Shown: positions 15,001 through 23,257, counted from the first letter of the stretch. The stretch is DNA of 23,257 nt from an uncultured Elusimicrobia bacterium (GCA_964359165.1 CAYHRV010000008.1:1-23257); one strand, 5' to 3'. Notes: generated by a model not told the origin, from the letters alone. Program-made: numbers and translations.

Positions 15001-18000
15001 CCCCCTTGAGCGCGGTAGTGAGCTCCTTCCCGGTGGTCACCGCCACGGCCCTCATCCAGGCGACGACGAACTTCCTGCAGATCCCCACGGTGGTGTCCCT
15101 GGCCCCCGGCGGGGTCGACCAGGGGGCCTCGGACATCCCCATGCTCCGCTTCGACCTGCTCTCCAACAAGAACAACTTCTCCTGGCAGGGCGTGGTCGTT
15201 GAGAAGACCGGCACGGCCCAGGACTCCGACGTGGGGGCGGTGAAGGTCTGGCTCGACAACGGCGACGGGGTCTTCTCGGTGGCGATGGATTCCGCCATTA
15301 CCAACGGCCTGGACACCTTCCTCTCCGGGCAGGCCAACGTCGCTCTCACTACGCCGCAGACCATCTCCAAGAGCACGCAGAGCTATTTCATCACCGTCGG
15401 CGTGAGCCCGAGCGCGGTCCCGGGCAGGACGATCGGATTGCAGGTGGCCACCTCGGCCAGCCTGGTCGTCAACTACCCCAACGAGGTCTCTACGATGACC
15501 GTCGCCTTCCCGCTGGAAGGCGGGCCGGCGCCCATCAACCAGTTCGCCAACACGGTCTCGGTGACCACCGCCAGCATAGTCCCCGTCCTGGGGGCCGAGC
15601 CGGGAACCCAGAACGTGGCGGTCATGTCCCTGGAGATGAAGACCAACGTGTCCAACGCCCGCTGGCTCATCCTGCCCATCAGCCAGATCGGCACGGCCCC
15701 GGACACGGACCTCGGCGACGTCAAGGTGTATTACGACGTGAGCAACATCGGGTCCTTCAACTCCGCCAACCTGAGCTCCTACGTGCTCATCACCTCCACG
15801 GGGCACCGGTTCGGACAGAACGGTCCCAAGTCGGTGCGCTTGGCCTTCGCCTCCCCGCCCACGCTCGGCCCGGCGACCCAGCGCTTCTTCGTCACGGTCG
15901 ATCTGAATTCCTCCGCCAAGCCCGAGAACACCGTGAAGCTGAGGACCAACGTCTCCGCGGGAGAGCCGGGGATCATCGAGTCGCCCAACACCCTGGCCAT
16001 CAGCTTCGAATCCTCGGCGTTGAACATCAATCCTCCCCCGACGCTCATGTACGTCCTGGCGGCCAGCTCCGCGCCCGCCTCGGTCAACCAGGGCGACTCC
16101 AACCTTCCCATCCTCACCCTCAGGGCGTGGATGGCGGCCTACACCGGACAATGGACGCAGTTGGCCGTGTCCCGCTGGGCGCCCGGCCTGGATTCGGACG
16201 TCTCCGGCGTAAAGCTCTTCTACGACAGCAACGACAACGGGGTCCTCGACGTCACCTCCGACCAGCGCCTGAGCACCGCCTCCTTCGTCGCGGGCACCGC
16301 GACGCTGGGTTTCTCCACCCAGACCATCCGGGTCGCGACGCAGACCTATTTCCTCACCTACGACATCTCCATCACGGCCGGCGGAGGCAACGGAGCGAGC
16401 GCCTCCCTGGGGGCGCCGGGGGTGTTCACCGTGGCCGCTCCGCACAGCGTCTCTTCGCTGGGCTTCCCGATACAATCGGCCTCCGCCACGGTGAAGGCCA
16501 CCCAGACGGGGCTCTTCGCCCTCGGGCAGGCCAAGGCCCCCGGCCAGCTCGTGCAGAGCGCCACCAACCAGGTCATGCTCACCCTGGAGCTCTATACGAC
16601 TCAGTACGCGCTGCTCTGGAGCGGCCTGTCCGTGCAAAGGACGGGCACGGCTTCGGATGCGGATATCACCGCGGTGCATGTCTGGACCGACGGCGGGACC
16701 TACGGCGTCATAGATCCGGAGGACAAGGACATCACCTCCGGCCTCAACTCCTTCCTGGCCGGGTCGGCCGGGGTGAGCCTCGTCAACGTCCAGACGATCG
16801 GCACCTCGCACGCGCGCTACCTGGTCACCGTGGACATCGCGCCCTTCGCCGACCCGGCCAAGACCTTCGGCCTCTCCGTCGCCGCCGCGTCCGCGTTCAC
16901 GCTCAATTCCCCCAATGTCGCAGTGGACCAGAATTTCCCGATGACCGTGGCGCCCGTTCCCCTGCGGAAGCTGCCCGAGAACCTCGTGGTGACGCCGCAG
17001 AACCTGATGCCCGGCGGGGTCAACCAGGGGCAGGAGTCGACGGCGGCCAAGCTCCTGGTGCGCGCCTCGCGGGATCGGGTGACCTGGACCCGGCTGAAGC
17101 TGGCGAAAGCGGGCAGCATCGAGGAGGCAAGCGTGCGCGAAGTCCGCATCGTCAAGGACCTGGATGGCTCGGGCGCTGTGAGCTCCGGCGACCTTATCGT
17201 AGGAAGCGGGACCTTCAGCTCCGGCGTGGCCGACATCGTCTTCTTCGCCGCCCAGACCGTCACCGCGTCTACGGCGACATACTTCATGACCATGGTCCTG
17301 GATTCCTCGGCCACGGTGGACGCCCTGGCGGGGTTCACCCTGGGCAATGAGACCTTCTTCTCCGTGGACGCTCCCGACGGGGCGGTCTTGAACGGCACCT
17401 CCTTCGCCACGACCTTGGGGAAGGTGCTCGATTCCAAGACCCCGCTCATGCCCGTGGTCACGCTCGATGGGGCCATGAGCAGCCAATTCGAATACCTGCA
17501 CTTCGTCTGGAATTCCACCGTGGCGTTCGGGAGCATGGACAAGGCATGGTACGCGGTGGGAACGGATTCCAGCACCGACGCGGGCAGGCAGAACGTGCTC
17601 GCCTACACCGCCATCCCGGTCACGGCCGTGGATTACAAAGGCATAGGGTTCCCCTTGAAGAGCGGCACCACTTATTATGTCTCGGTCAAGACGCAGTCCT
17701 CCTTCGGCTTCTTCAGCCCGGCGGGCATCTCCCCGGGTATGCTCATGGATTTCACCGTCCCTCCGGTCCCGGCGCCGGCGGTGACCGCCGGGCAGGCCGC
17801 GGTGCTCGTGAGCTGGGGGACCGTCGGCGGGGGCCCCACCGGGATCGCCGGCTACCTCGTCGAATACCGCAAGGGCGACAGCCCCATCTGGTACAACGCG
17901 AAGACCAAGAGCCGGAGCAGCGTCGCCTCCGTATCCTCGATGCGCGCGGATGTCCGCGTAGCCGAGGTCATCACCTCCACCGCCGAACTCGTCACAGGAG

Positions 18001-18425
18001 GCTCCTTCCAGGGCACGGATCTTCCCTCCGGCACGCTCTATGTGCGCGTGCGGTCGGTGACCGGGGCCGGGGTGGCGAGCGCGCCGAGTGAGCCGGTTAA
18101 GGTCCAGGTCGGCGTCCTTCCGCCGGGGGGGATCTCCGACGCCGCCAACTATCCCAACCCCTTCGACTCGCGCAAGAGGGACACGACCATCGTGTACACC
18201 CTGAGCGCGAACGCGGACATGTCCATCAAGATATACGACGTGTATGGCCGCTTGGTCCGGGAGATCGGCTACGGCGCGGGCGGACCCGGGGGCCAGGCCG
18301 GGACCAACGAGGTCAAGTGGGACGGCACGGACGCGGGGGGCCGGAAAGTATCCAAGGGCATCTACCTGGCCGTGCTCCAATCCGGCGGAGCCAAGGTCAT
18401 CCTAAAGATCGGCGTCATTCACTGA
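3..18425 (+). CDS. Giant modular secreted/cell-surface adhesin-like protein, 5'-truncated by the window (>6,140 aa visible)
   Basis: One uninterrupted frame runs from the window edge to TGA at 18423-18425. Codons 3-62, upstream of the tracked GTG(63), read GNSYGVAWGDYDNDGDLDAI. That is another FG-GAP/VCBS blade, so the gene continues upstream and GTG63 is an ORF-caller artefact. Extracellular domain motifs occur along the whole length (VCBS/FG-GAP, FN3-like, LamG_3-like, propeller blades, T9SS-type CTD). Confidence 0.95.
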   Translation, partial: GNSYGVAWGDYDNDGDLDAIVANYSNQDEFLIRNDTAAVHAAPTPPGAFSASFQEYGLSSSSGVLTLSWGNGADVENSTASLRYFIRVGTTVAGSSTTFKIPARYSLDGYSGGGSSLYSTKISSAVRGMKLVMQKETTVYWAVVTEDGEFQRSAQSAEQTAFLAAPGAVTDLRVASIVSTGLGASSMTVTLAWTAPGENGYTGAITGGSYDIRYSTLAPITSTNAYAAAAFTISVATNANPGETHSYAIPLLEAKATHYFAITVKDAAGVRSGLSNPTTAQAYVDALSGTADGAYDLAFGDYDRDGDLDAITANSGAADETLLRNDGNSVFTRLTVAGSAGDSRGVAWGDYDNDGDLDAAVANAGGQDEVLLRNDGGGAFAVVALTGSGGDSAGVAWGDHDNDGDLDLAVSNAGGQDEYIARNNGDGTFSTFTLTGTAGASWGVGWGDYDNDGDLDLAVANAAANMVLARNDGNGVFSTSSVAGTSNYRALAWGDFDGDGDLDLVLGTNGDELLVRNNGNGTFTSAALTGSGGDTYGLAAGDYDNDGDLDLLLGNFAGVDETLLRNDGVGNFTPVVLGGTGRSTLGASWGDFDGDGDLDAMLAASNVDDFILRNDTASTHNAPTAPAGGFSSSFQEYGIASSSGVLTLSWGNGSDTPHSTTTLRYLVRVGTTVAGSSTTVKIPSRFSVGGFSGSLPYSTNVSSAVRGMKLVLQKEATVYWAVAAEDSEFARSAQSAEQTASLVAPGRVTDLRVVSIVSTGLGASTMTVTLQWTAPGDDGYSGALAGGTFDLRYSTLAPILGWNDYSTAPFTVSIASSVNAGELQTYVIADLDVRTSHYFAITTKDGLGVRSALSNLNAIATGYILLLPGTSGSDPGAAWGDYDRDGDLDLLLSDSRLMRNDGNGSFVQVAVPGMGGFGASWGDYDNDGDLDIVSNANAIGDEVVLRNDGGAFTAVAVTGSGGNSAGGNAWGDFNNDGRLDFAAANQSAENEVLARNNGNGTFSTSTLTGSGGSSQGIAWGDYDNDGDLDLAVANGGEDPVLLRNNGGGALSVTTALNGFGFPVRAIAWGDYDKDGDLDLALARSGGADESLLRNNGNGTFTEAVLTGSGGDSFGVAWGDYDNDGDLDLAVANAGGGDEVVLRNNGNGTFSKFILAGTAGNTHGITWGDFDGDGDLDLAAASDDKQVMVLRNDAALAHSVPTPPVAGFSASYQEYDASASSGVLTLQWGNGSDVEDSTATLRYFVRVGTTVAESSTTLKLPSRYSLDGFAGGGSFLYSTQVSSAARGIKLVMQKETTVYWSVLTEDSEFLRSSSSTEQTSYLIAPGRVTDLRVSAISSTGLGASSMTVTLQWTAPGDNGYSGALSGALYDIRYSTLAPITAAGAYLAAPFTLSISTNVNPGETQTALLQYLEAKATHYFAITAKDSTGVRSLLSNPATAEAYVRYPAATGGNSKAVAWGDYDKDGDLDALVANGGGADEFLMRNDGNGAFTKVTIAGSGGDSTAVAWGDYDNDGDLDALVANTGNEDEFLLRNDGGAFTKVALTGTAGNSKAAAWGDYDNDGDLDALVANAGTQDEYLLRNNGTSFSSAAIVGIGGDSNGVAWGDHDGDGDLDAVVANGGAEDEVLLRNDGSGVFVPLVMAGGSGGASYGAAWGDYDNDGDLDILVANGGAEDEVLLRNDGGGTFFKITLTGSGGDTRGAVWGDADNDGDLDILAATGGGEDKILLRNDGGGTFAKVVLAGSGSESRGASWGDYDGDGDLDAVLAGDSAQDESILRNDLASSHNAPSAPSSGFSASFQEYGIFATSGVLTLSWGNGSDAETPAASLRYLVRIGTTVAGSSTTLKVPVRVSLNGSSPYSTRITPAARGLKIIIQKETTAYWAVTAEDGESLRSSESVEQSAFLAAPAAIADLAAAQDNTVETSSSAWMTLTWTVPGEDGSASTLQSGAVYDLRWSTVGVVDSQAKYEAVPNQSLIAADGQIPGTVRTQLVAVPPGKTYYFALTVKDSLGSRSGLSNAAAGVFANALMEETTGVAIPTALQGDTTAFLKVKLWVDSGTLTWLKIAVRKTGGVPDSAVKNVAVYQDSNANGVFDAADSFALRTSPAVFVSSAATLTLSPAQTINTTTKTYFVALQFEPANLQTDGSSVAVRLDPQPFTVRGAGIPGTDLPALLLDGVDDQVRVPTSGSLNAIGALTVEAWVKTTDSGADRSIVTRANGGLTQGFRLWLNGAGCGAGVPTLFIGPAFLCANREGTPVRVDDGRWHHVAAAYNDLNGKRIFVDGEMLSTGPVSAGVLADTSDLAFGGPNPAGGGYLAGVLDEVRVSNFMRYTSGFVPALRNSTDGGTALLHHFDALVGTGTLVVDASANGNNGTLLGNMAGYGRSTSTVLVDVQDVLQSSGTDISPTTMYRNATDVGLLKLQLWTDHDYATFQRISVGHFGSGSEAGVTNIRMYKDDGDGLFSPVLDSNLTLGQDFAVGKATFDLVAAGQTQVITPSTKTYFFSWDITGAAQIGESLGLQIGSTEDILLSGTTDAVSALSFPIQTATRAVVAASAFVAAETATGTWVNISSIVFNGNFNLGNVNHFHPRWDQNPATSITGTEPLWNAGKTTTTATQDANDWYFHVKAFDGSDTPGTQQDLGPFFVDRTPPSASLFRSFNSTAGALAEAQVNDLALGVTVQLAVQDALSGLSLDGLAPLAPVEGTVGLWHFDDPSGSVWKDSGTAGIQLSGSGVVTRAAGRFRTGLLFDGSGNLSASPSSLPLGAAVRSIEAWINPVSTQTTLGLVTWGAAGSNTLMRFGMINGKLSSDMGGVSNLAGPVLSTGVWQHAAFTYDGSAARYYLNGVFVGSHTYGAVATSAGTLYVGAGEGATLKFRGTIDEARILNRVLSAEEVYNDRFRGDPYYAAYSTSAGNSWQFVLSTTPGSGPWVARSGAHGSSALETISVYGLNLIVSTSNAAGAQATNQVLFYAADTAGNAQVSGPFGLVVDTNAAVALSTPIAPANGVYTGPRPNFDWAGPSTTSVAAMAGPGGNGGRFYLQAAANDPSFSPGSIVLSISTPALVADTSLSRVVGVYQSTFTLAEGNTYYWRVRSLSSLGVSGPWSAYSSFVVDASSPSASSYLLFNSSGGALGETQYTDILRGATAQMTFADGLAGFPRKLDFGPNAGTIALWHFNERDGSFPVDASTNSLAGTLIGINASSAAYRATPFGAGLRCEGAQAMLASSAPFNFAAGSEFTFEAWINPDSVTGIQIIGGVGSVSPGAGNGNWLLRIDNSKLYFTNATSAGFATLPGVVSAGVWQHVAMTVRGSKTSFYVNGVLNSVGGNGANSGTYDKPFALCTAIGTSGVYENPYQGLIDEVRILNYEATAEQVASDHAATAPGIFSVEYSTTAGNTWAVVSATTPAAGYAYLSFPGAEGGLGPDTLVLRDMTLAHSTNSSAGAAATNQVRFIVPDRAGNFQTAGPFAVLADTVAATAVSTPSYPVGGAYAQTRTNFLWAGPSTKTASGMGASASYLLQVDDAQDFSSPDISVSTPVATHSTSAVTVFGAYVSTFTLADATTFYWRVMAKDFLGQLSPPLTTGKFVTDMSTPVSSSFGTFDSTRGFTSESGANNLQSGVTAQLTVQEAGPSGLRTGLLDGNRTFGVIYTTGGHNPAASVTWNDGGMAEALSDSAGGYFTSLAVYQGRLYAGLATGGSGGKVYSFDGSAWAAPDPFVNDVLALMEFQGKLYAGLEGGEVWGFDGALWTLAADLPEVRVNSLAEYHGRLYAATGSQGRIYAYDPAAGSWYETYKSTNVEIFSLEVYNGRLFAGGNPTLYAFSGSTWTPAFHFQAGGNFYDLQTHNGKLYAATNNQRVYSYDGSAWTFFTPPETEIRALGAHQGRLYFGASLPSIGRVYTHDGKDLLRVRDLATNSDRIFALKTFQDRLYMGAQSGAGPAKVYVSTPLASSITGVDGTNSAQTLQATGLDLIASQNGVVCGGSSPCLATNQVRLTVSDMAGNVHQAGPFSVLVDPLIVPSTAVYPADGSFVRASSPVFTWSELNPMTTHQVQVSSVPSFSNLSVDKLFNTPSFTSPMALAHGTTYYWRIRSQNAAGIYSAYSEPISFAMDLARPSTSAFRHVSSSGGALGESQFNALASGLTVQIDIQDAFSGLDGGPLRLPVDQAAALYPFDEGQGNYALPLSGANRLGFSGASAWAQGLYGKAVKFDGTNSLYSNSAADLPLGNSARTLEAWVYPEDSNGGGILQYGNLMRLSINGSCSAGTGTTGNGKLCLDAADSGDYTFTPNQWHHVAFTYDGNGSGALYADGVHVATVTRSFATPAGDVWVGSAAACGSFNGRIDELRVLSKGLSGAELRADYLRAGAFRAEVSTTAGQAWEVIAATAPHNGRYLALSGAPGSAAVETMSLYHLDLPESTTTLKGASGTNQVKFVVSDRAGNEVTAGPYTVLKDTTVLQPSLFWMVPLSTQSIYLVASATDNFSGIRDFQFEISSSVLFNSSVSTSPWVESATYTFTGLLNSTTYFARVRARDNLLNVSIPSRLDQVGGFAIPAATSTFGSVYYATAPAAPASALQDSYVPMVKFTLQTPPGATSKFFYLRVRKTGNTADSSIVEASVHTDGNSDGVFQSTADVRQAGSPLVNGTALINLSAEGSTQQLNDTAKTFFVALRMRSDAPPGETVGLDILQASDFGLQFPSSPEGPFPTSAAPIPISDGVNDLTIAGVSLSPVVAQPNEKNIKLLRLQAQTNSGTSIINSIAFQLKGTLPSTQLKSLTVWRDKDGDGGFDPAVDEAVSDGNDSFAGGVSTVALTAQASSRTVSVTPTIFFLSADILPTATLGDWFQVEFATANVALLNPLDIVKFAEAGTIISSACTVQQNNIVTVSTTDVMPVAFFQGESYTVLKLMAQVDIGFAVVNRFQISAVGTGQDSDVTTVSVWRDLTVDGGPLNKVTDKLLGSAPFVSGLATMDIPAELNEDYKKLLAGTTAVFFVTYDIGPGASPGRSLGAKLTNASYLRMATPLSAVVSSFPVVTATALIQATTNFLQIPTVVSLAPGGVDQGASDIPMLRFDLLSNKNNFSWQGVVVEKTGTAQDSDVGAVKVWLDNGDGVFSVAMDSAITNGLDTFLSGQANVALTTPQTISKSTQSYFITVGVSPSAVPGRTIGLQVATSASLVVNYPNEVSTMTVAFPLEGGPAPINQFANTVSVTTASIVPVLGAEPGTQNVAVMSLEMKTNVSNARWLILPISQIGTAPDTDLGDVKVYYDVSNIGSFNSANLSSYVLITSTGHRFGQNGPKSVRLAFASPPTLGPATQRFFVTVDLNSSAKPENTVKLRTNVSAGEPGIIESPNTLAISFESSALNINPPPTLMYVLAASSAPASVNQGDSNLPILTLRAWMAAYTGQWTQLAVSRWAPGLDSDVSGVKLFYDSNDNGVLDVTSDQRLSTASFVAGTATLGFSTQTIRVATQTYFLTYDISITAGGGNGASASLGAPGVFTVAAPHSVSSLGFPIQSASATVKATQTGLFALGQAKAPGQLVQSATNQVMLTLELYTTQYALLWSGLSVQRTGTASDADITAVHVWTDGGTYGVIDPEDKDITSGLNSFLAGSAGVSLVNVQTIGTSHARYLVTVDIAPFADPAKTFGLSVAAASAFTLNSPNVAVDQNFPMTVAPVPLRKLPENLVVTPQNLMPGGVNQGQESTAAKLLVRASRDRVTWTRLKLAKAGSIEEASVREVRIVKDLDGSGAVSSGDLIVGSGTFSSGVADIVFFAAQTVTASTATYFMTMVLDSSATVDALAGFTLGNETFFSVDAPDGAVLNGTSFATTLGKVLDSKTPLMPVVTLDGAMSSQFEYLHFVWNSTVAFGSMDKAWYAVGTDSSTDAGRQNVLAYTAIPVTAVDYKGIGFPLKSGTTYYVSVKTQSSFGFFSPAGISPGMLMDFTVPPVPAPAVTAGQAAVLVSWGTVGGGPTGIAGYLVEYRKGDSPIWYNAKTKSRSSVASVSSMRADVRVAEVITSTAELVTGGSFQGTDLPSGTLYVRVRSVTGAGVASAPSEPVKVQVGVLPPGGISDAANYPNPFDSRKRDTTIVYTLSANADMSIKIYDVYGRLVREIGYGAGGPGGQAGTNEVKWDGTDAGGRKVSKGIYLAVLQSGGAKVILKIGVIH
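108..870 (+). other. FN3-like domain pair, copy 1 of 4
   Basis: The first half reads PTPPGAFSASFQEYG..GVLTLSWGNGADV..LRYFIRVGTTVAGS..VYWAVVTEDGE. The second half reads VTDLRV..MTVTLAWTAPGENGYTG..YDIRYST..THYFAITVKDAAGVRSGLSN. The WTAPGDDG..YDIRYS..YYFA..D..GN.S motif is typical of bacterial FN3-like surface domains. Confidence 0.7.
870..1850 (+). repeat. FG-GAP/VCBS repeat beta-propeller 1 (7 blades, ~47-50 aa each)
   Basis: Seven in-frame copies of [AS]WGD[YFH]D[NGR]DGDLD..(3-4)N..(6-10)L.RN[DN]G.G.F. The DxDxDGxxD loop is the integrin-alpha/VCBS calcium-binding motif. Confidence 0.85.
1850..2600 (+). other. FN3-like domain pair, copy 2 of 4
   Basis: Colinear with copy 1 (APTAPAGGFSSSFQEYG..LTLSWGNGSD..LRYLVRVGTTVAGS..; VTDLRV..LQWTAPGDDGYSG..FDLRYST..SHYFAITTKDGLGVRSALSN). 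It shares a 34-nt identical stretch with copy 1 (259-292 = 2002-2035). Confidence 0.7.
2600..3580 (+). repeat. FG-GAP/VCBS repeat beta-propeller 2 (7 blades)
   Basis: Seven WGD[YF][DN].DG.LD blades. One is degenerate (WGDFNNDGRLDF). Confidence 0.85.
3580..4330 (+). other. FN3-like domain pair, copy 3 of 4
   Basis: VPTPPVAGFSASYQEYD..LTLQWGNGSDV..LRYFVRVGTTVAES..; VTDLRV..LQWTAPGDNGYSG..YDIRYST..THYFAITAKDSTGVRSLLSN. Confidence 0.7.
4330..5335 (+). repeat. FG-GAP/VCBS repeat beta-propeller 3 (7 blades)
   Basis: Seven WGD[YHA]D[NKG]DGDLD blades. Adjacent blades share a 34-nt identical stretch (4843-4876 = 4993-5026). Confidence 0.85.
5335..6075 (+). other. FN3-like domain pair, copy 4 of 4 (most diverged, not followed by a propeller)
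   Basis: APSAPSSGFSASFQEYG..LTLSWGNGSDAE..LRYLVRIGTTVAGS..; then LTWTVPGEDGS..YDLRWST..TYYFALTVKDSLGSRSGLSN. Confidence 0.65.
6075..6495 (+). other. Dispersed copy a of the unassigned ~140-160 aa module (see array 13600-17435)
   Basis: LKVKLWVDSGTLTWLKIAVRKTGGVPDSAVKNVAVYQDSNANGVFDAADS..TKTYFVALQFEP has the same motif order as the tandem array copies. Confidence 0.6.
6497..6990 (+). other. LamG_3-like (concanavalin A-like lectin/glucanase fold) domain 1
   Basis: LLLDGVDDQVRVP..LTVEAWVK..GRWHHVAAAYN..IFVDGE..LAFGG..YLAGVLDEVRVSN. This is the characteristic motif series of Laminin_G_3-type domains. Confidence 0.7.
7150..7640 (+). other. Dispersed copy b of the unassigned module
   Basis: LKLQLWTDHDYATFQRISVGHFGSGSEAGVTNIRMYKDDGDGLFSPVLDS..TKTYFFSWDITGAAQIGESLGLQI. 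Confidence 0.6.
8100..8675 (+). other. LamG_3-like domain 2
   Basis: LWHFDDPSGSVWKDSG..GLLFDGSGNL..SIEAWINP..GVWQHAAFTYDGS..YYLNGV..LYVGA..FRGTIDEARILNRVLSAEEV. Confidence 0.75.
9485..10105 (+). other. LamG_3-like domain 3
   Basis: LWHFNERDGSFPVDAS..FTFEAWINPDS..GVWQHVAMTVRGS..FYVNGV..YQGLIDEVRILNYEATAEQV. Confidence 0.75.
10990..11795 (+). repeat. Seven-bladed beta-propeller-like repeat (~38-41 aa blades), family unassigned
   Basis: Seven consecutive copies of h..L..[YFH].G[RK]L[YF]A[GA]....G.[VI]Y.[YF]DG..W. Examples are LAVYQGRLYAG..KVYSFDGSAW, LMEFQGKLYAG..EVWGFDGALW, LAEYHGRLYAA..RIYAYDPAAGSW, LEVYNGRLFAG, LQTHNGKLYAA..RVYSYDGSAW, LGAHQGRLYFG..RVYTHDGKD and LKTFQDRLYMG..KVYVS. Confidence 0.7.
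12463..13045 (+). other. LamG_3-like domain 4
   Basis: LYPFDEGQGNYALPLSG..GKAVKFDGTNSL..TLEAWVYPED..NQWHHVAFTYDGNG..LYADGV..VWVGS..FNGRIDELRVLSKGLSGAEL. Confidence 0.75.
13600..17435 (+). repeat. Eight tandem copies of an unassigned ~160-aa (~477-nt) module with an embedded D-x-[DN]-x-[DN]-G calcium-loop-like motif
   Basis: The conserved T.[TSR][YF]F[VIL].h motif recurs at ~13935, 14415, 14901, 15375, 15876, 16338, 16809 and 17271, giving periods of 462-501 nt. Each copy has the motif order [ML]L.L.L......W..h.V...GT..DSDV..V.V[WY].D.n.dG.F.....D......F..G.A...L......I...T.TYFh..Dh...A..G...G. Confidence 0.75.
17435..18125 (+). other. Two FN3-like domains preceding the C-terminal sorting domain
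   Basis: FEYLHFVWNS..AWYAVGTDS..GTTYYVSVKTQSSFGFFSPAG; then AAVLVSWGTVGGGPTGIAGYLVEYRKGDSP..GTLYVRVRSVTGAGVASAPSEPV. Confidence 0.6.
18130..18422 (+). other. C-terminal T9SS-type sorting domain (Por_Secre_tail type A / FlgD Ig-like fold)
   Basis: The last ~95 aa read NYPNPFDSRKRDTTIVYTLSANADMSIKIYDVYGRLVREI...GTNEVKWDGTDAGGRKVSKGIYLAVLQSGG.KVILKIGVIH. This matches the YPNPF...T.I.Y.L......L.IYD..G.LV..L......G.....WDG.D..G..V.SG[VI]Y consensus, and the protein ends directly after the domain. Confidence 0.75.
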
Positions 18426-18491: not shown

Positions 18492-20087
18492 GTGATTCAG
18501 CGCGCGAGCGGGCTACACTATAGCGTGCGCGGATTCCTCGCCGTCATCAGCCTTATTTCCCTCTCCATCCCCCCGGCTTTCTGCGCAGGCGTCGCCGGAA
18601 GGCCGGGCGACCTGTTCAATTTCGGCGCCGGGGCGCGCTCCTTGGGCATGGGCTCGGCCGCGACCGCGGTGGTCAACGACGTGACCTCCGTCTACTACAA
18701 CCCCGCGGGGCTGGGCCTGCTGCCCTCGCGGGAAGTCGTGTTCATGCGCGCCATGCTCTTCCAGGGGGCCAACTACGATTATCTGGGCTACGCGCAGAAC
18801 AAGAGCAAGACGGCCGGCGGCTGGGGCTTGGAGTTCATCCGCCTGGGCATCCAGGGGGCGGAGGGGCGCGATGAGTTCAACCAGCCGACCGGCGGGTTCG
18901 GCTATTCCGAGACCGCCTTCTCCTTCGCCAGCGGCTGGCGGGGGGTGCTCCACCCCAACATGTCCCTGGGAGTGCGGGGCAAGATGCTCCAGCGCAGCCT
19001 GGCCGGCAGTTCGGACAGGCTCGTGGGCGTTGATTTCGGGGCGCAGGCCGGCCCCTTCATGGGCGAGCGCCTGACCCTGGGCGCCGTGGCCTCCAACGTC
19101 GTGGGCCTCAAGACCGGCGACACCGACGACAAGCTCCCGACCTTCCTGCGCGTCGGGGCCGCCTACCGGGTGGCCGGGCCCCTCTCCATCGCCGGCGACT
19201 TCTCCAACGACAAGGAGTTCCGCCTGGGCACGGAGTACGCCTTCGGCATGGTGTCCGTGCGCCTGGGCATGGCCGATGAGGGCCTCACCTTCGGGGGCGG
19301 CCTGGTCTTCAAGAACCGCTACCGCATGGACCTGGCCGTGCTCAGCCATCCCGAATTGGGAATGTCCCAGAGGATATCCCTCGGGTATCGTTTCGGCGCC
19401 GTCGCGCCCACGGCGAAGGGGCGCAAGATGCAGTTCTTCGCCGGGCAGTTCCTCGGAGAGGCCCAGGCCGCGCTCAAGAAGCGCGACTACCTCAAGGCCT
19501 CCTCGGCCCTGGACACGGGCATCGGCATCGACCCCAAGCTGGGCGGGGGGGAATGGCGCGCCAAGGCGGAGCGTCTGCGGCGCATCGTCATGAAGCTCGA
19601 CCTCCAAGCCCATCCCGAGGACGCCGAGGTGCTCGCCCAGGAGACCGAGGCGGCCTACATCGCCTATGCCGCCATCGACGCCTACCTGACGCGCGATGAG
19701 GACAGGGCCCTCCTGCTCGCGCACGCGGCCCTGGGCCAGGAGCCCAGCAAGGGCGCCTACCAGCACCTTCTGGACGCTCTCTCGGGACTCAGCGGCAGGC
19801 CGGTGGACCGCGACCTGGTCCTGCCTCCCGGGCGCCTGGCCGAGCTCAAGATGAAGAAAGCCGTGGACGCGGTCTACGCGCGGCGCTTTGAAGCCGCCAT
19901 CGTTCTGCTCCGGGAAGCGCTCTGGCTCGACCCGGAGAACGCCGCGGCCTGGACCAAGCTCGGGTCCGCCTATTTCGCGGTCAACGACAAGGAGCGCGCG
20001 GCCGAAGCCTACCGGAAAGCGGTGGAGCTCGATCCCGCCGACACCAAGCTCAAGGAGTTCATGCGCGCCCAAGGGATGCGGCAATAA
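18492..20087 (+). CDS. Outer-membrane beta-barrel of the FadL/PorV-like superfamily fused to a C-terminal TPR domain
   Basis: GTG start. The N-terminus is signal-peptide-like (RGFLAVISLISLSIPPAFCAG). The motif GAGARSLGMGSAATAVVNDVTSVYYNPAGLGLL matches the G.GAR..GMGGA..A..D....[YW]NPAGL hatch motif of FadL/TodX/PorV/TraF-like barrels. Alternating-hydrophobic strands run to RISLGYRF. TPR-like repeats follow and the ORF stops at TAA 20085-20087. Confidence 0.85.
   Translation: MIQRASGLHYSVRGFLAVISLISLSIPPAFCAGVAGRPGDLFNFGAGARSLGMGSAATAVVNDVTSVYYNPAGLGLLPSREVVFMRAMLFQGANYDYLGYAQNKSKTAGGWGLEFIRLGIQGAEGRDEFNQPTGGFGYSETAFSFASGWRGVLHPNMSLGVRGKMLQRSLAGSSDRLVGVDFGAQAGPFMGERLTLGAVASNVVGLKTGDTDDKLPTFLRVGAAYRVAGPLSIAGDFSNDKEFRLGTEYAFGMVSVRLGMADEGLTFGGGLVFKNRYRMDLAVLSHPELGMSQRISLGYRFGAVAPTAKGRKMQFFAGQFLGEAQAALKKRDYLKASSALDTGIGIDPKLGGGEWRAKAERLRRIVMKLDLQAHPEDAEVLAQETEAAYIAYAAIDAYLTRDEDRALLLAHAALGQEPSKGAYQHLLDALSGLSGRPVDRDLVLPPGRLAELKMKKAVDAVYARRFEAAIVLLREALWLDPENAAAWTKLGSAYFAVNDKERAAEAYRKAVELDPADTKLKEFMRAQGMRQ
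18597..19394 (+). other. Beta-barrel portion ending in an internal OMP beta-signal-like strand
   Basis: Gly/aromatic-rich amphipathic strands include GGWGLEFIRLGIQG, FSFASGWRG, SLGVRGKML, LVGVDFGAQAG, LRVGAAYRV, FRLGTEYAF and RMDLAVL. The final strand RISLGYRF (19371-19394) ends in an aromatic Phe, like a BAM beta-signal. Confidence 0.65.
19435..20084 (+). repeat. TPR-like helical repeats (predicted periplasmic)
   Basis: FLGEAQAALKKRDYLKASSALDTGIGIDPK, plus AVDAVYARRFEAAIVLLREALWLDPENAAAWTKLGSAYFAVNDKERAAEAYRKAVELDPADTK. The W-L-G-Y-A-F-A-P spacing is typical of TPRs. Confidence 0.75.
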
Positions 20088-20093
20088 GATCCG

Positions 20094-21044
20094 ATGGACA
20101 TTGTGATCGTGGTCGTCGTCCCCCTTCTGTTCCTGATGCTGGCCGCCAGCATGCTGGTGGTCAGCCAGCTCTCCGGCTTCTACCACTTCAACAAGTATTC
20201 GAAGCGCCAGCAGGAGAACAAGCGCGAGATCGCCACCTTCATGAACCGCCTGGCCGCGGCCCAGAACACCGTGTTCCAGCGCAGCCGGCAGCTCGAGGAC
20301 CTCTCCTCCCGGCTCCAGATGAACAATCAGGAGCTGGCGCGCCTCAACAGCATGAAGACCAAGTTCCTGTCTATGGCCGTCCACGACATGAGGACGCCTC
20401 TGGCCACCATGAAGGGCTTCGGAGAGATGCTCAGCCGGCAGGTCTATGAGGACAAGCAGAAGAAGTACGTCGATTACATCGTCCGCGGCAGCGACAAGAT
20501 CAACGACCTCCTGGCCGACCTCACCGACCTCTCCATCATCGAGGCCGGCAAGCTGCGCATGTCCAAGTCCCCCTTCGAGCTCTCCGCGATGCTCGACTCG
20601 GACATCACGCCCCGCATCGGATTCGCCGCCCAGGAGAAAGGCATCGTTTTCACCACGACGGGCCTTCCCCAGAGCGTCACAGTGCATGGAGACCGCGCGA
20701 ACCTCGCAAAAGCCCTCAAGAACATGCTCAATAACGCGGTCAAGTTCACCCCGGCCGGCGGAAAGGTGGACCTCAAGGTGACGCTGACCGGCCGCGGATT
20801 GCTCTTCCAGATCAAGGACACCGGCCCCGGCATCCACCTCTCCGAGCGCAAGCGCGTCTTCGAGAAGTTCTACCAATCGCAATTCGGAGACCCCAAGGCG
20901 AAGAAGCAGGGCTGGGGCCTGGGGCTGGCCATCGCCCAAGAGATCGTCAAGGCCCATCAAGGGGAGGCCGGGGTGGACTCCCCGGGACTGGGCAAGGGCT
21001 CGACCTTCTGGTGCCGCATCCCCCTCAAGCCCTCCCGCGCGCCC
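20094..21044 (+). other. Histidine kinase core (TM1, coiled-coil, DHp/HisKA, HATPase_c) with no extracytoplasmic sensor domain
   Basis: H-box FLSMAVHDMRTPL (His97 codon at 20382-20384). N-box LKNMLNNAVKFTPAGG. G1 IKDTGPGI. F-box VFEKFYQ. G2 GWGLGLAIAQEIV. C-terminal GKGSTFWCRIPL. Confidence 0.9.
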
Positions 21045-22562
21045 ATGAAGGCCCTGGCTTCCCTTGCGCTCTTCTTCCTGCTCGGCCTGCTCCCGGGGAG
21101 GGCGAAGGCCCAGTCGGGCATCCCGCTCGACGACAAGGCCAAGTTCGAGCGGTCGCTCGAGGAAAAGGCGGAGTCGGTGCTCCTGCGCATCCTGGGCCCC
21201 AACCGCTCCCGCGTGGTCGTGGACGCGACCATCGATTTCACGCGCATCGAGAAGTTCGAGGTCAAGGCCGGCGCGGCCATCGGCGGTGAGGAGAGGAACG
21301 CCCTCTTCCTCTGGCAGAACATCGGGGCCCAGAGCGGAGGCCAGGAGCTCTTGCCCGGCATCCCCTCGCCGGAAGCGGCCCCGGGTTTCGGCGCGAAGTC
21401 CTATGAGAGGCAGAACTCCTTCCCTAGCTCCTTCGTCAAGCGGCTCAAGGTCACCGTGGTCCTGGACCGCACCGTGAGCGCGGAGATGGACGACGTCCTG
21501 ACCCGGGCCGTCGGGGAGATACTCAATCTCCAGGCGGACCGCGATGAGATGTCGATCACCCGGGCGCCCTTCGCCCCTCCTTGGAAGACGATATGGCACA
21601 CGCAGGAGTCGGTGAGCCTCCTATTTAAGTACGCCGTGGTGAGCCTCATGACGCTGATCACCCTGGTGGTGGTGGCCGCCTGCTTCCTCAAGCTGGCCAG
21701 CGCCATGGATTCCGTGGCCCAAGCCCAAGCCCATCAGCTTCAGATGGACTTCGGCCAGGGGAAGGAAGGGGAGGGAGGGGCCGGCGCGGATGGGAAGAAG
21801 AAGGAAGGCGAGGAGGAGGAAGAGGAGGAGGAAGGGCCGCAGAAGATCGTCTTCAACGTGCGGCCGGAACAGGTGGAGACGCTCGCCGAGCTCCTGCGCG
21901 GCCAGGACCCGGAGAACGTAGCTCTAGTGGCCGCGCACCTGAGCCAGGACGTCAAGAAGCTCTTCTTCGCCCAACTCTCCCCCTCCGCCTATAGCCAGGT
22001 GCTCCTGCACCTGAGCCGCATCCGCTTCGTGGAGGCCGAGGTCGTCTCCGCGGTCAAAGACGAGCTCGAGCGGCGCATGGACAGCGCCGTGGGCGGACGC
22101 TCGAACCTGCTGGAGCTCATCGACACCTCCGACCTGCGCGGCAAGCGGGAGCTCCTGGGCATGCTGGAAGCCACCGACCCCGACCTCTACGCCGTGGCGC
22201 GGGAGCGGATACTGCTCTTCGAGGACCTCTCCGATTTGGAGGAAAAGGATTGGTCGCTCGTGCTCTCCGTCGTGACCCTGGAGGAATGGGCCTTCGCGCT
22301 CTATGAGGCTCCCGAACTCCTGGTCGAGGCCCTAAGGGGGCAGATGCTGCCCAAGACCTGGGCGATATTGGCGCAGATGATGCAGGTGGGCAGGCCCTCC
22401 GAAGCCGCGGTGAAGAAGACGCATGAGCGCATCGTCAAGGCGGTCGCCAAGCTCATCGCCGACGGCCGCATCACCAATCCGGTGACACGGCGCATCGAGC
22501 TCAAGACACTGCAGAAAGAGGAGGCCCTCCCCGCTCAAGAGGAGGGGGTGCTCAATGGCTGA
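20094..22562 (+). CDS. Chimeric membrane protein: histidine kinase + FliF C-terminal (RBM3)-like periplasmic domain + FliG middle/C-terminal-like domain
   Basis: ATG lies 6 nt after the upstream stop. The single 822-codon frame has no internal stop. Three hydrophobic helices (aa ~3-25, ~320-336, ~510-535) give a topology that places the kinase and FliG-like parts in the cytoplasm and the FliF-like part in the periplasm. See the sub-features for motifs. Confidence 0.85.
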   Translation: MDIVIVVVVPLLFLMLAASMLVVSQLSGFYHFNKYSKRQQENKREIATFMNRLAAAQNTVFQRSRQLEDLSSRLQMNNQELARLNSMKTKFLSMAVHDMRTPLATMKGFGEMLSRQVYEDKQKKYVDYIVRGSDKINDLLADLTDLSIIEAGKLRMSKSPFELSAMLDSDITPRIGFAAQEKGIVFTTTGLPQSVTVHGDRANLAKALKNMLNNAVKFTPAGGKVDLKVTLTGRGLLFQIKDTGPGIHLSERKRVFEKFYQSQFGDPKAKKQGWGLGLAIAQEIVKAHQGEAGVDSPGLGKGSTFWCRIPLKPSRAPMKALASLALFFLLGLLPGRAKAQSGIPLDDKAKFERSLEEKAESVLLRILGPNRSRVVVDATIDFTRIEKFEVKAGAAIGGEERNALFLWQNIGAQSGGQELLPGIPSPEAAPGFGAKSYERQNSFPSSFVKRLKVTVVLDRTVSAEMDDVLTRAVGEILNLQADRDEMSITRAPFAPPWKTIWHTQESVSLLFKYAVVSLMTLITLVVVAACFLKLASAMDSVAQAQAHQLQMDFGQGKEGEGGAGADGKKKEGEEEEEEEEGPQKIVFNVRPEQVETLAELLRGQDPENVALVAAHLSQDVKKLFFAQLSPSAYSQVLLHLSRIRFVEAEVVSAVKDELERRMDSAVGGRSNLLELIDTSDLRGKRELLGMLEATDPDLYAVARERILLFEDLSDLEEKDWSLVLSVVTLEEWAFALYEAPELLVEALRGQMLPKTWAILAQMMQVGRPSEAAVKKTHERIVKAVAKLIADGRITNPVTRRIELKTLQKEEALPAQEEGVLNG
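21045..21700 (+). other. TM2, a FliF C-terminal (YscJ_FliF_C/RBM3)-like periplasmic domain, then TM3
   Basis: MKALASLALFFLLGLLPGRAKAQ is followed by LEEKAESVLLRILGPNRSRVVVDATIDFTRIEKFEV...PGIPSPEAAP...YERQNSF...RLKVTVVLDRTV..DDVLTRAVGEILNLQADRDEMSITRAPF, then LLFKYAVVSLMTLITLVVVAACFLKLA. The motif order parallels the last periplasmic domain and second TM of Salmonella FliF (IEAILSPIVG..V.AQV.A.LDF...E.T.E.Y.P ... PG...N.P ... ERLSVAVVV ... I..L...A.GF...RGD.L.V...PF ... TM). Confidence 0.6.
21759..21846 (+). repeat. Low-complexity acidic/Gly/Lys linker including E8 (GAG/GAA run 21810-21833)
   Basis: GKEGEGGAGADGKKKEGEEEEEEEEGPQK, with eight consecutive Glu codons (gag gag gag gaa gag gag gag gaa). 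Confidence 0.9.
21850..22530 (+). other. FliG middle + C-terminal-like domains (MgtE_N/FliG armadillo-like fold)
   Basis: LAELLRGQDPENVALVAAHLSQDVKKLFFAQLSPSAYSQVLLHLS parallels the FliG_M L..LL..EHPQ..AL.L..L.....A.VL..L......EV. LLFEDLSDLEEKDWSLVLSVVTLEEWAFALYEAPELLVEALRGQMLPKTWAILAQMMQVGRPSEAAVKKTHERIVKAVAKLIADGRI parallels the FliG_C F.FEDL..LDDR.IQ.VLREV....LA.ALK.A...L.EKI..NMS.RAA..L.E.ME..GPVR..DVE.AQ..I...VR.L...GEI. Confidence 0.7.
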
Positions 22563-23257
22563 AAAGGTCGATTTCCTGCTCGCCTCCCTGCGCGGCCAGC
22601 CTCCTCCCGAGGCGCCGCCAGAGGAAGGTGATTTCACGTCGGCCGCCGCCCCTTCCGAGGACGCGCTCGCCCCCATGCGGGCCAAGATCGAGGAACTCGA
22701 GCGCAAGCTGGCCGAGGCGGCCTCTCCCCCGGCCCCGGCGGAAGGGGAGGAGGCGGCGCCCCAGCCGCCCCAGGCGCCGACCGAGTTGGCTCTCTTCCTC
22801 CATACCCGCGTGGAGCTATTGGAGAAGAGGCTGGAGCTGGCCCAGCAGGAGGCTCTGCGCGCCAATCTGATACTCCGGGAGAGGGAGGACGCCCAGCGCA
22901 AGGCCCAGACCGAGGTGGAGGACCTCTTCCGCGGCATCCGGGAACAGGAACGCGCGGCCCGCTTCGACCGGAGGCTAAGGGAGGATCACTCGACGGTGCG
23001 GGGCAAGGTGGAGGAACTGGAGGCGCGCCTGGCCATGGCCCAACTGCGCATGATCCCGGCCTCGGAGGTGCTCGCCTTCCTGGAGAAGGAAGAGGGGCTT
23101 GAACGGCTTAAGGAAAGGCTCAAAGAACAGCTATCAAGAATCGAGAACGCGGCGCCTTTGGAGGCGCCAGTTCCAGAGGCAGAGGAGCGGCCCGGGCACG
23201 CCCGGCCCCCCCCCGGGCGCCCCGGTACCGGCCCCCCCCCGCCCATAGCGCCCCAGG
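22555..23257 (+). CDS. Coiled-coil / proline-rich protein, 3'-truncated by the window and absent from the supplied ORF track
   Basis: ATG at 22555 overlaps the upstream stop (ATGGCTGA, 8-nt overlap). GGAGGGGG at 22541-22548 is a Shine-Dalgarno-like site 6 nt upstream. The frame is open for 234 codons to the window edge: MAEKVDFLLASLRGQPPPEAPPEEG...MRAKIEELERKLAEA...LEKRLELAQQEALRANLILREREDAQRKAQTEVEDLF...VRGKVEELEARLAMAQLRM...ERLKERLKEQLSRIEN...RPPPGRPGTGPPPPIAPQ. The heptad-like E/R/L/A-rich segments indicate coiled coil. Confidence 0.7.
   Translation, partial: MAEKVDFLLASLRGQPPPEAPPEEGDFTSAAAPSEDALAPMRAKIEELERKLAEAASPPAPAEGEEAAPQPPQAPTELALFLHTRVELLEKRLELAQQEALRANLILREREDAQRKAQTEVEDLFRGIREQERAARFDRRLREDHSTVRGKVEELEARLAMAQLRMIPASEVLAFLEKEEGLERLKERLKEQLSRIENAAPLEAPVPEAEERPGHARPPPGRPGTGPPPPIAPQ
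23206..23240 (+). repeat. Two C9 homopolymer tracts inside the proline-rich coding tail
   Basis: C9 at 23206-23214 and C9 at 23232-23240, encoding PPP/PPPP. Confidence 0.9.

Follow-up and report, generated by a model that had tools for sequence, protein, structure and literature searches.

We describe here a stretch of 23,257 nucleotides from an uncultured Elusimicrobia bacterium (GCA_964359165.1 CAYHRV010000008.1:1-23257), which we will call the window, and we will particularly focus on one of its genes. This gene is an 822-codon open reading frame (ORF) in which a histidine kinase (HK) is followed by a domain resembling the last periplasmic domain of FliF and by the middle and C-terminal domains of FliG. 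A preliminary description of the window had presented its product as a single-polypeptide fusion, suggestive of a ring scaffold coupled to phosphotransfer. The gene stands in a row of genes on the plus strand, between those of a giant surface protein and a PorV-like outer-membrane barrel on one side and that of a coiled-coil protein, cut by the window end, on the other (Table 1). Homologous loci in other assemblies are referred to by L numbers.

Domain content and conservation of the fusion gene

The frame encodes a complete kinase core upstream of its FliG domains, as the preliminary description had stated for both. In the Pfam scan of the product, HisKA (PF00512, E 1.5e-15) and HATPase_c (PF02518, E 1.8e-23) are followed by FliG_M (PF14841, E 2e-7), which exceeds the gathering score, and by FliG_C (PF01706, E 1.4e-14), which also passes its cutoff. 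A generic class-I kinase core was found with NCBIfam as well, the N, G1, F and G2 boxes being kept along with H97, and no periplasmic sensor domain could be seen for the kinase in the sequence of the fusion protein. Hydropathy gives three hydrophobic segments (aa 1-30, 316-335 and 506-542), with an acidic linker that contains a run of eight glutamates downstream of the third; the topology, the third transmembrane (TM) helix and the linker are those already proposed.

The periplasmic segment had been likened to the last domain of FliF, that is, its third ring-building motif (RBM3), and this likeness was borne out by profile and fold searches. When the whole protein is scanned, the YscJ_FliF_C family (PF08345) remains below threshold, with 19.2 bits for a cutoff of 23.8, and when the periplasmic domain of the window is scanned alone, it clears this cutoff with 24.7 bits. 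The same family was matched individually by the periplasmic segments of 22/22 family members (best E 6.9e-14). The homologues were also aligned, and the periplasmic segment was cut out as a 22-sequence alignment, the profile of which was compared with solved structures. This profile matches solved FliF chains almost exclusively (E 2e-8 to 1e-4), in particular 9yh6 (E 2e-8), 8z5s (9e-7) and the Salmonella chain 6scn (1.3e-4), the latter over residues 241-439, which correspond to RBM3. As for the whole-family profile, it matches the Thermotoga FliG_MC structure 1lkv with an E value of 1.8e-39 and solved kinases with 3e-48.

In the AlphaFold2 model of aa 318-822 (mean predicted local distance difference test score, pLDDT, of 81), the periplasmic domain is built as alpha-beta-beta-(disordered insert)-beta-beta-alpha-beta, and it is followed by a long TM helix and, after a linker modelled as disordered, by a FliG-like part made entirely of helices. 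Foldseek searches against the PDB return FliG_MC (E ~6e-10) and the FliF S-ring/RBM3 (~1.5e-4), with PrgK and EscJ far behind, so that profile and fold searches alike give significant matches to FliF and FliG. The insert of RBM3 (aa ~393-435, that is, ~43 aa at window positions 21270-21398) is modelled with low confidence in the AlphaFold2 monomer and occupies the position of the FliF beta-collar. It is variable and disordered, with the exception of a near-invariant ELLPGIP, through which a periplasmic partner might be contacted.

FliF forms the flagellar MS ring, and its cytoplasmic C-terminus binds the N-terminal domain of FliG (FliG_N). The ring counts about 33-34 subunits and carries a beta-collar, while RBM1 and RBM2 house the export gate. 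Pfam and the model confirm that RBM1 and RBM2 are missing from the fusion protein, together with the N-terminal TM helix of FliF, its periplasmic part being only ~165 aa long. FliG_N is not present either, and the chain runs from the third TM helix (TM3) through the acidic linker into FliG_M. A covalent RBM3-TM-FliG_MC chain is thus found in place of the non-covalent contact between the FliF C-terminus and FliG_N, as had been recognized.

A search with aa 318-822 gave 56 relatives, the named ones coming nearly all from Elusimicrobiota metagenome-assembled genomes (MAGs). The orthologous fusions that the preliminary description suggested looking for do exist: more than 30 fused homologues of 808-847 aa, which carry HK, RBM3 and FliG and share 37-86% identity, are found in independent assemblies of Elusimicrobiota MAGs, and an identical 822-aa protein is present in another assembly. 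The dN/dS ratio is 0.11 over 492 codons when the gene is compared with that of L009, a relative 96% identical to the window. For these reasons, the fusion is neither an assembly artefact nor a decaying remnant. It is true that relatives with split genes show how one indel converts separate genes to a fusion, and that rotor proteins devoid of a filament have frequently been treated as remnants (PMC12199754). A non-functional flagellar remnant, or a frameshift or assembly error joining two genes, is nevertheless hardly credible, since the fused orthologues and the low dN/dS come with catalytic and hinge motifs that are kept and with a synteny that holds from 34 to 67% GC, the range found across the loci. 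A fragment of the HK-RBM3 part, split over two frames, was also found in L025 (CAZJKR010000120.1), a bin named 'Curvibacter' and hence attributed to a betaproteobacterium; it probably reflects mis-binning or misassembly rather than transfer, and it was set aside.

Table 1. Genes and features of the window, with positions counted from its first nucleotide (T9SS, type IX secretion system; CTD, C-terminal domain)
Feature	Position	Strand	Size, content or basis
Giant surface protein	63..18425	+	>6120 aa; FG-GAP_3 x18, Laminin_G_3 x4, fn3/Ig domains
Sorting domain at the C-terminus of the giant protein (T9SS type-A CTD/FlgD_ig-like)	18150..18407	+	
PorV/PorQ-family (UPF0164-like) outer-membrane barrel	18492..20087	+	signal peptide; C-terminal TPR (aa ~449-523)
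Fusion gene: HK, signal peptide, FliF RBM3, TM, acidic linker, FliG_M, FliG_C	20094..22562	+	822 aa
Kinase TM1, aa 1-30	20094..20183	+	PllfL.LAasmlVVSQ strongly kept; hydropathy, alignment
Kinase core	20352..21029	+	HisKA/DHp aa 87-152 (H97), HATPase_c aa 199-312; N, G1, F and G2 boxes
Internal Sec-type signal peptide MKALASLALFFLLGLLPGRAKA	21045..21110	+	predicted signal peptidase I cut A339/Q340
Periplasmic FliF RBM3-like ring-building domain, aa 340-505	21111..21608	+	profile, Foldseek
TM3 and juxtamembrane helix, aa 506-542	21609..21719	+	hydropathy, conservation
Acidic low-complexity cytoplasmic linker with E8 run	21729..21857	+	pLDDT below 50
FliG middle (aa 595-665) and C-terminal (aa 691-794) domains	21876..22475	+	Pfam, profile, Foldseek
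Coiled-coil partner gene, 5' part, runs off the window end	22555..23257	+	conserved N-terminal peptide MAEKVDFLLASLRG

The kinase junction, split relatives and kinase-less relatives

The second hydrophobic segment had been taken for a TM helix. In the alignment of the fused forms, it has a basic n-region, an h-region of 10-16 residues and an AxA/Q site (the slash marking the cut) that directly precedes a strongly kept mature N-terminus, IPLEEKAK[FY]E; these are the features of a conserved Sec-type signal peptide and not of a typical TM helix. It is also the least conserved of the membrane segments, with a top-residue frequency of 0.48, against 0.75 for the first TM helix (TM1) and 0.80 for TM3, and such low conservation is what one would expect of a targeting signal rather than of a packed helix.

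The relatives in which the kinase and the rotor part are separate lead to the same segment. Some relatives of 489-609 aa have no kinase. In L003/L004/L022 and in L016, the HK is encoded by a separate upstream gene, the TGA of which overlaps the next ATG (GCATGA), and the RBM3-FliG gene begins with a textbook Sec signal peptide (MRLAGLFFAFALPAAAQ, followed by TIPLE). In L006, a 642-aa coiled-coil gene (6381-8309) lies between the kinase gene and the RBM3-FliG gene, and in L021 (2629-6043; 38% GC), motA stands between the HK gene and the RBM3-FliG gene and motB is found several kb farther down, so that the genes of the kinase, the stator and the rotor, although shuffled, have remained together. 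Because the split relatives begin at the same signal peptide, the fusion is a one-indel variant of a translationally coupled gene pair. We give roughly even chances to the cleavage of the precursor by signal peptidase I at A339/Q340 (AKA/Q). The products would then be a kinase held in the membrane by two hydrophobic segments and, apart from it, an RBM3-TM-FliG protein. The claim of a single polypeptide therefore stands for the ORF, which is indeed fused, and becomes doubtful for the mature products, which may be two proteins since a cleavable-type signal peptide has been retained.

The kinase itself is well preserved where it is present. Across 38 fused homologues, H97 is conserved within KFLSMAVHDxRTPL, and so are the N, G1, F and G2 boxes. 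The conservation of TM1 and TM3 equals that of the DHp and CA domains, TM3 and DHp being the two most conserved segments of the protein, and this suggests that TM1 and TM3 make specific intramembrane contacts.

The kinase is, for all that, absent from most of the wider family. A profile devoid of the kinase columns was run against a library of 1.8 billion proteins clustered at 50% identity, and 528 clusters were obtained at E<=1e-30. Among the best 150 clusters, nearly all match across RBM3-TM-FliG_MC, with E values down to ~1e-48, and most proteins count 480-750 aa. The members that were sampled carry YscJ_FliF_C, FliG_M and FliG_C, often together with a C-terminal TPR, and their FliG_C is more canonical (E ~1e-30). 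Few cluster members are named, and every one that has an organism name belongs to Elusimicrobiota. In the HK-less loci L026-L029, no kinase is found, the homologue of the PorV-like/TPR protein lies directly upstream of the RBM3-FliG gene, and giant proteins are encoded further upstream; that of L028 ends with a sorting domain homologous to the one in the window. FlbD-MotA-MotB follow after one or two large proteins in L028 and L029, which are the loci with enough downstream sequence. An MgtE-type transporter was considered for this family and rejected, as its MgtE_N matches reflect the known homology between FliG and MgtE_N and no MgtE membrane domain is found. The kinase is therefore best seen as an accessory, given that it is a separate gene in some relatives and that the far larger RBM3-FliG family lacks it. 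As judged from gene content, the conserved heart of the system is the association of PorV-TPR, RBM3-FliG and MotAB, to which the kinase is a clade-specific addition.

The gene cluster, its stator and its surface components

Within the window, 66 bp separate the giant gene from the PorV-like gene and 6 bp separate the latter from the fusion gene on the same strand, while the start of the coiled-coil gene overlaps the stop of the fusion gene by 8 bp (ATGGCTGA). No promoter- or terminator-like sites were found on the plus strand between these genes of the window. A blast-based survey of ~20 loci of the HK clade found the same order almost without exception: giant adhesin, PorV-like/TPR, (HK-)RBM3-FliG, coiled-coil, MotA, MotB and regulators. 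In these relatives, the coiled-coil protein is cytoplasmic and 360-680 aa long, and it is followed by MotA, by MotB (MotB_plug and OmpA) and by an OmpR-type regulator. For the coiled-coil partner and for the 642-aa and 503-aa proteins of L006, which have no precomputed Pfam matches, NCBIfam gives coiled-coil noise only. In L009, the coiled-coil gene, motA and motB are found directly downstream, from which it follows that the window ends before the stator genes and the regulators. This context was missed by the preliminary description, which considered the fusion gene without the stator, coiled-coil and regulator genes that follow it in relatives and without the PorV-like and adhesin genes of the same conserved cluster.

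As the stator genes lie just past the window end, the results on MotA and MotB come from relatives. With NCBIfam, MotA matches the PomA/MotA/MotP models at 1e-44 and TolQ at 5e-8, and MotB matches MotD/MotB at 1.2e-42; the best matches, PomA/MotA and MotD/MotB, fall below their equivalog cutoffs. MotA keeps P173 and P222. MotB has a plug (PF13677) and a peptidoglycan-binding OmpA-like domain (PF00691), and it keeps D32. A motor of the TolQR/ExbBD type was rejected on the basis of the MotA values. Another possibility is that of an anti-phage defence of the Zorya kind, which is also built on a MotAB-like motor. MotB does match the PADLOC models of ZorB (best E 1.8e-24), but it scores higher against the flagellar MotD/MotB; in addition, MotA has no ZorA match, no ZorC- or ZorD-like proteins were found with PADLOC, and Zorya has nothing equivalent to the FliG and FliF domains, to the PorV-like protein or to the adhesin, so we regard this possibility as practically negligible.

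On the rotor side, the Gly-Gly hinge of FliG and an LLFEDL motif of the MFxF type are kept in the fusion family. The FliM-binding EHPQR motif is absent, the sequence being QDPEN, and R160 is not kept. No FliM or FliN gene was found within +-10 kb at any locus, and no fli, flg or flh gene within +-10 kb in ~25 loci. One could still think of a divergent but genuine component of a flagellar basal body, the other flagellar genes being located elsewhere in the genome. RBM3, FliG_M, FliG_C and MotAB, as well as FlbD in the wider family, are all flagellar families, engineered FliF-FliG fusions do assemble into rings (PDB 8z4d, which is matched by the family profile), and a few Elusimicrobiota have full flagellar gene sets (bioRxiv 10.1101/2022.07.08.499144). 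A divergent true flagellum is nonetheless very improbable, because RBM1/RBM2, FliG_N and EHPQR are missing, because a cleavable signal peptide is found where FliF has its N-terminal TM helix, and because fli/flg/flh genes are lacking around these loci, the constant neighbours being a PorV-like barrel and a sorting-domain adhesin. Moreover, the same preprint places such genes in species that have no structural flagellar genes (bioRxiv 10.1101/2022.07.08.499144).

As to the surface components, the frame of the giant gene is open from base 3 of the window, and its true start is probably upstream. The giant protein contains at least 4 copies of a large module, which is made of an FG-GAP propeller block and an Ig-like block ('SASFQEYG...VRVGTTVAGSSTT...'), and its last 90 aa match TIGR04183 (Por_Secre_tail) with 30.2 bits for a cutoff of 23, and PF13860 (FlgD_ig) with an E value of 8.5e-8. 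Such a giant protein is the upstream partner in nearly all loci. The PorV-like protein, whose TPR domain was identified from Pfam matches, is homologous at full length and is encoded directly upstream of RBM3-FliG in every locus, the distant ones included. The GldLM/PorLM motor, the PorKN ring, SprA and PorU are not present in the cluster or its flanks.

Several relatives present variations on these surface genes. In L001 (7983-8396), L005 (8166-8435), L011, L012 and L016, a stand-alone protein of 89-137 aa, which is nearly all T9SS-type sorting domain, is encoded between the giant and the PorV-like genes; the window has no such gene. L006 carries a second, canonical PorV gene (PF19572; around 13677-14948) together with a sorting-domain protein, and three single-domain receivers are found close by. 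In L027 (1-5327 and 15798-16145), two divergent pairs of genes encode sorting-domain cargo (CHU_C/Por_Secre_tail) and a PorV-like barrel, which suggests that a cargo accompanied by its own barrel is a general arrangement in these bacteria. Past its rotor gene, L027 also has a Roadblock/LC7 (MglB-like) gene. L002 has a gene for an outer-membrane lipoprotein of the CsgG/FlgO family after motB (16339-17190). FlgO is a protein of the flagellar outer ring of Vibrio, and this gene may be another borrowed envelope part or a coincidence.

Regulators are found past the stator genes. The preliminary description stated that no response regulator was encoded, which is true for the window; relatives, on the other hand, carry regulators just after motB. 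Canonical single-domain receivers are found in L002, L005, L006 and L021. A response-regulator diguanylate cyclase with a GGDEF domain (RR-GGDEF) is encoded immediately beyond the cluster, on the other strand, in L001 (15750-16697), L003/L004/L022 (15994-16968 in L003), L013, L015, L023 and L024, and ~6 kb further on in L011; its gene is sometimes accompanied by a HEAT-repeat gene. Its recurrence hints at an output through cyclic di-GMP (c-di-GMP).

The proposed machine and its relation to known systems

Textbooks present FliG and MotAB as rotor and stator of the bacterial flagellum. Given the accessory nature of the kinase, the cleavable-type signal peptide and the MotA/MotB and PorV-like/adhesin context, 'rotor subunit of a stator-rotor machine' is a better description of the fusion protein than 'signalling scaffold'. 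The idea of a ring scaffold coupled to phosphotransfer remains reasonable in so far as the kinase has retained its motifs and both TM1 and TM3 are conserved, but the system does not rest essentially on the kinase fusion. We consider it probable, on the grounds of sequence and synteny, that the ORF encodes the rotor subunit of a flagellum-derived, non-flagellar envelope machine, which would be driven by MotAB and serve the adhesin, with a lineage-specific kinase attached.

In such a machine, the RBM3 domains would oligomerise into an S-ring-like ring in the inner membrane, which would place a ring of FliG under the membrane at a fixed 1:1 stoichiometry. MotAB, anchored to the peptidoglycan, would use the proton gradient to push on FliG_C and thereby turn or strain the ring. 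The periplasmic face of the ring would couple to the TPR of the PorV-like protein, the holder of the sorting domain of the adhesin, so that the energy of the motor would reach the cell surface, where the adhesin would be moved in a gliding-like fashion, exported or deployed. The kinase, present at 1:1 with the rotor subunit, would stay associated with it through TM contacts after its possible release by signal peptidase I, and it would report or control the assembly or the load of the ring to RR-GGDEF, to CheY-like receivers and to the atypical OmpR-like regulator. The fully rotary version, a flagellum-independent machine in which a MotAB-driven RBM3-TM-FliG ring is linked by the PorV-like/TPR protein to the giant adhesin and in which the kinase acts as a tachometer or load sensor, is one that we propose only tentatively.

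Several points weigh against the proposed machine. The EHPQR motif and FliM/FliN are absent, which precludes a complete C-ring. The charges of the torque helix (K264, R281, D288, D289 and R297) are replaced in the HK clade (by Y/T, K, Q, M and S), and R90 and E98 of MotA are not kept either, position 98 being R. With these charges lost, a contact between stator and rotor in this clade, if any, must use a different interface. The PorV-like protein matches the PorV_fam model NF033709 with an E value of 1.2e-22 and 80.9 bits, for an NCBI cutoff of 90. The insert found at the beta-collar position of RBM3 is short and of low model confidence, the contact between TPR and RBM3 is a guess, and the OmpR-like regulator encoded after motB has a degenerate receiver, in which D57 is kept and the acidic pair (DD) and the T and K residues are missing. 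Finally, the term 'non-flagellar' draws on the local context and on one preprint, and we infer the mechanism beyond what the domain content and the synteny tell.

With regard to the interface, a family-specific PKTWAIL helix is found in the HK clade in place of the torque-helix charges, while the HK-less family keeps K264 of FliG (as K/R), D288/D289 (as EE) and E98 of MotA. Because the HK-less family keeps these residues, the ancestral system would have had a stator-rotor interface of the flagellar type, both sides of which have diverged together in the HK clade.

The system could also be mainly a complex for surface sensing or mechanosensing, in which the RBM3-FliG ring and MotAB would act as a sensor of load or stall, tied through the PorV-like protein to the adhesin, and in which the output would not be work at the surface but phosphotransfer to RR-GGDEF or CheY-like receivers, and thus c-di-GMP and gene regulation. 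Flagellar stators are sensitive to load, and in Caulobacter the motor relays contact with a surface to a diguanylate cyclase. An intact kinase stands at 1:1 with the rotor subunit, its TM1 is very conserved although it has no sensor domain, and RR-GGDEF or canonical single-domain receivers are encoded near the cluster in many loci. We find such a primary role unlikely, since the far larger HK-less family keeps the PorV-TPR/RBM3-FliG/MotAB core, so that signalling via the kinase is not the ancestral or general function. Within the HK clade, sensing is compatible with the rotor-stator machine that we favor.

This machine shares parts with several known systems. Its rotor resembles the flagellar MS ring and upper C-ring (RBM3, FliG_MC, the Gly-Gly hinge and the MFxF-type motif), its stator is of the flagellar type (P173/P222 of MotA; the plug, D32 and OmpA-like domain of MotB), and FlbD is encoded near motAB in the wider family. 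Unlike the flagellum, it has no RBM1/RBM2, FliG_N, EHPQR motif or FliM/FliN, a signal peptide replaces the N-terminal TM helix of FliF, the FliF and FliG parts are held in one chain, and no genes for the export gate, rod, hook or filament lie nearby. It further differs in the torque-helix charges replaced in the HK clade and in its constant partners, namely the PorV-like barrel, the giant adhesin and the coiled-coil protein. With engineered or spontaneous FliF-FliG fusions, for instance that of Vibrio (PDB 8z4d/8z4g), which still form rings, it shares a covalent chain and a fixed 1:1 stoichiometry, and 8z4d is matched by both the FliG and the RBM3 parts of the family profile. However, those fusions join two full-length proteins from a functional flagellum, whereas the present one occurs naturally and retains of its two partners no more than RBM3 and FliG_MC, the interface of the FliF C-terminus and FliG_N being deleted.

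The other side of the machine recalls the T9SS and the gliding of Bacteroidota. There too, a giant adhesin (>6000 aa; cf. SprB) with a type-A sorting domain goes with a PorV or PorV-like barrel, a proton-driven inner-membrane motor of the 5:2 type works alongside, and a two-component system is attached (cf. PorXY); PorX and the activity of the T9SS motor have been discussed (PMC10951265). The differences are that the motor is made of MotAB and of a FliG/FliF-type ring and not of GldLM, that SprA, PorK/N and PorU are missing from the cluster, that the PorV-like protein carries a TPR, and that the phylum is Elusimicrobiota and not Bacteroidota. The output would be analogous to the GldLM-PorV-SprB logic, with a rotor and a stator of the flagellar type. 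The same ring-building-motif fold is found in SctJ/PrgK/EscJ of injectisomes and in SpoIIIAG of sporulation, but these proteins carry no FliG domains and do not pair with MotAB; the matches to PrgK, EscJ and SpoIIIAG are weak, and both sequence and fold are clearly closest to FliF RBM3. Ion-driven inner-membrane motors also energise the outer membrane or the surface in ExbBD-TonB, TolQR-TolA, AglRQS-Glt (gliding of Myxococcus) and ZorAB, which, in contrast, work by way of a partner that spans the periplasm and lack a rotor of the FliG type; as far as we could find, a motor has a FliG ring for its partner in flagella only. The non-flagellar uses of 5:2 motors of the MotAB family have been listed (PMC12204202).

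As far as its gene content allows one to judge, the cluster lies outside both of the kinds from which it borrows, the flagellum and the T9SS. It keeps the torque-generating core alone (RBM3 ring, FliG_MC and MotAB), drops the parts for export, rod, hook and filament, and joins this core to surface parts of the T9SS kind, the whole being conserved under purifying selection in a phylum mostly devoid of flagella. Most free-living Elusimicrobiota lack the structural genes of the flagellum yet carry motAB, flbD and fliG, the role of which is unclear (bioRxiv 10.1101/2022.07.08.499144). The present analysis gives these orphan motAB/fliG genes an architecture and a conserved set of partners, and the proposed machine, if true, would explain their presence in non-flagellated species. 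Our literature search found no description of the HK-RBM3-FliG architecture, in agreement with the preliminary description, nor of the gene cluster.

To our knowledge, there is no case of FliG working outside the flagellum. If the proposal is right, this would be the first pair of FliG-MotA rotor and stator outside this organelle, with a new form of surface motility or adhesin deployment in Elusimicrobiota and a novel route by which ion-motive energy reaches the cell surface. It would also provide a natural, minimal rotor-stator system in which to ask which motor parts suffice for torque and which of them came first. Depending on how the phylogeny turns out, the machine would represent the flagellar motor radically repurposed, or else a surviving relative of a pre-flagellar rotary device. 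In the kinase clade, moreover, two-component signalling would be physically and directly tied to a rotor subunit, so that motor-based surface sensing could be tested with a single gene product.

Lastly, the window also contains two long antisense ORFs of 1692 and 1028 aa (13302-18380 and 18513-21599, both on the minus strand). These are not genes: their products are rich in Arg, Gly and Pro, which is typical of spurious ORFs in DNA of 66% GC.

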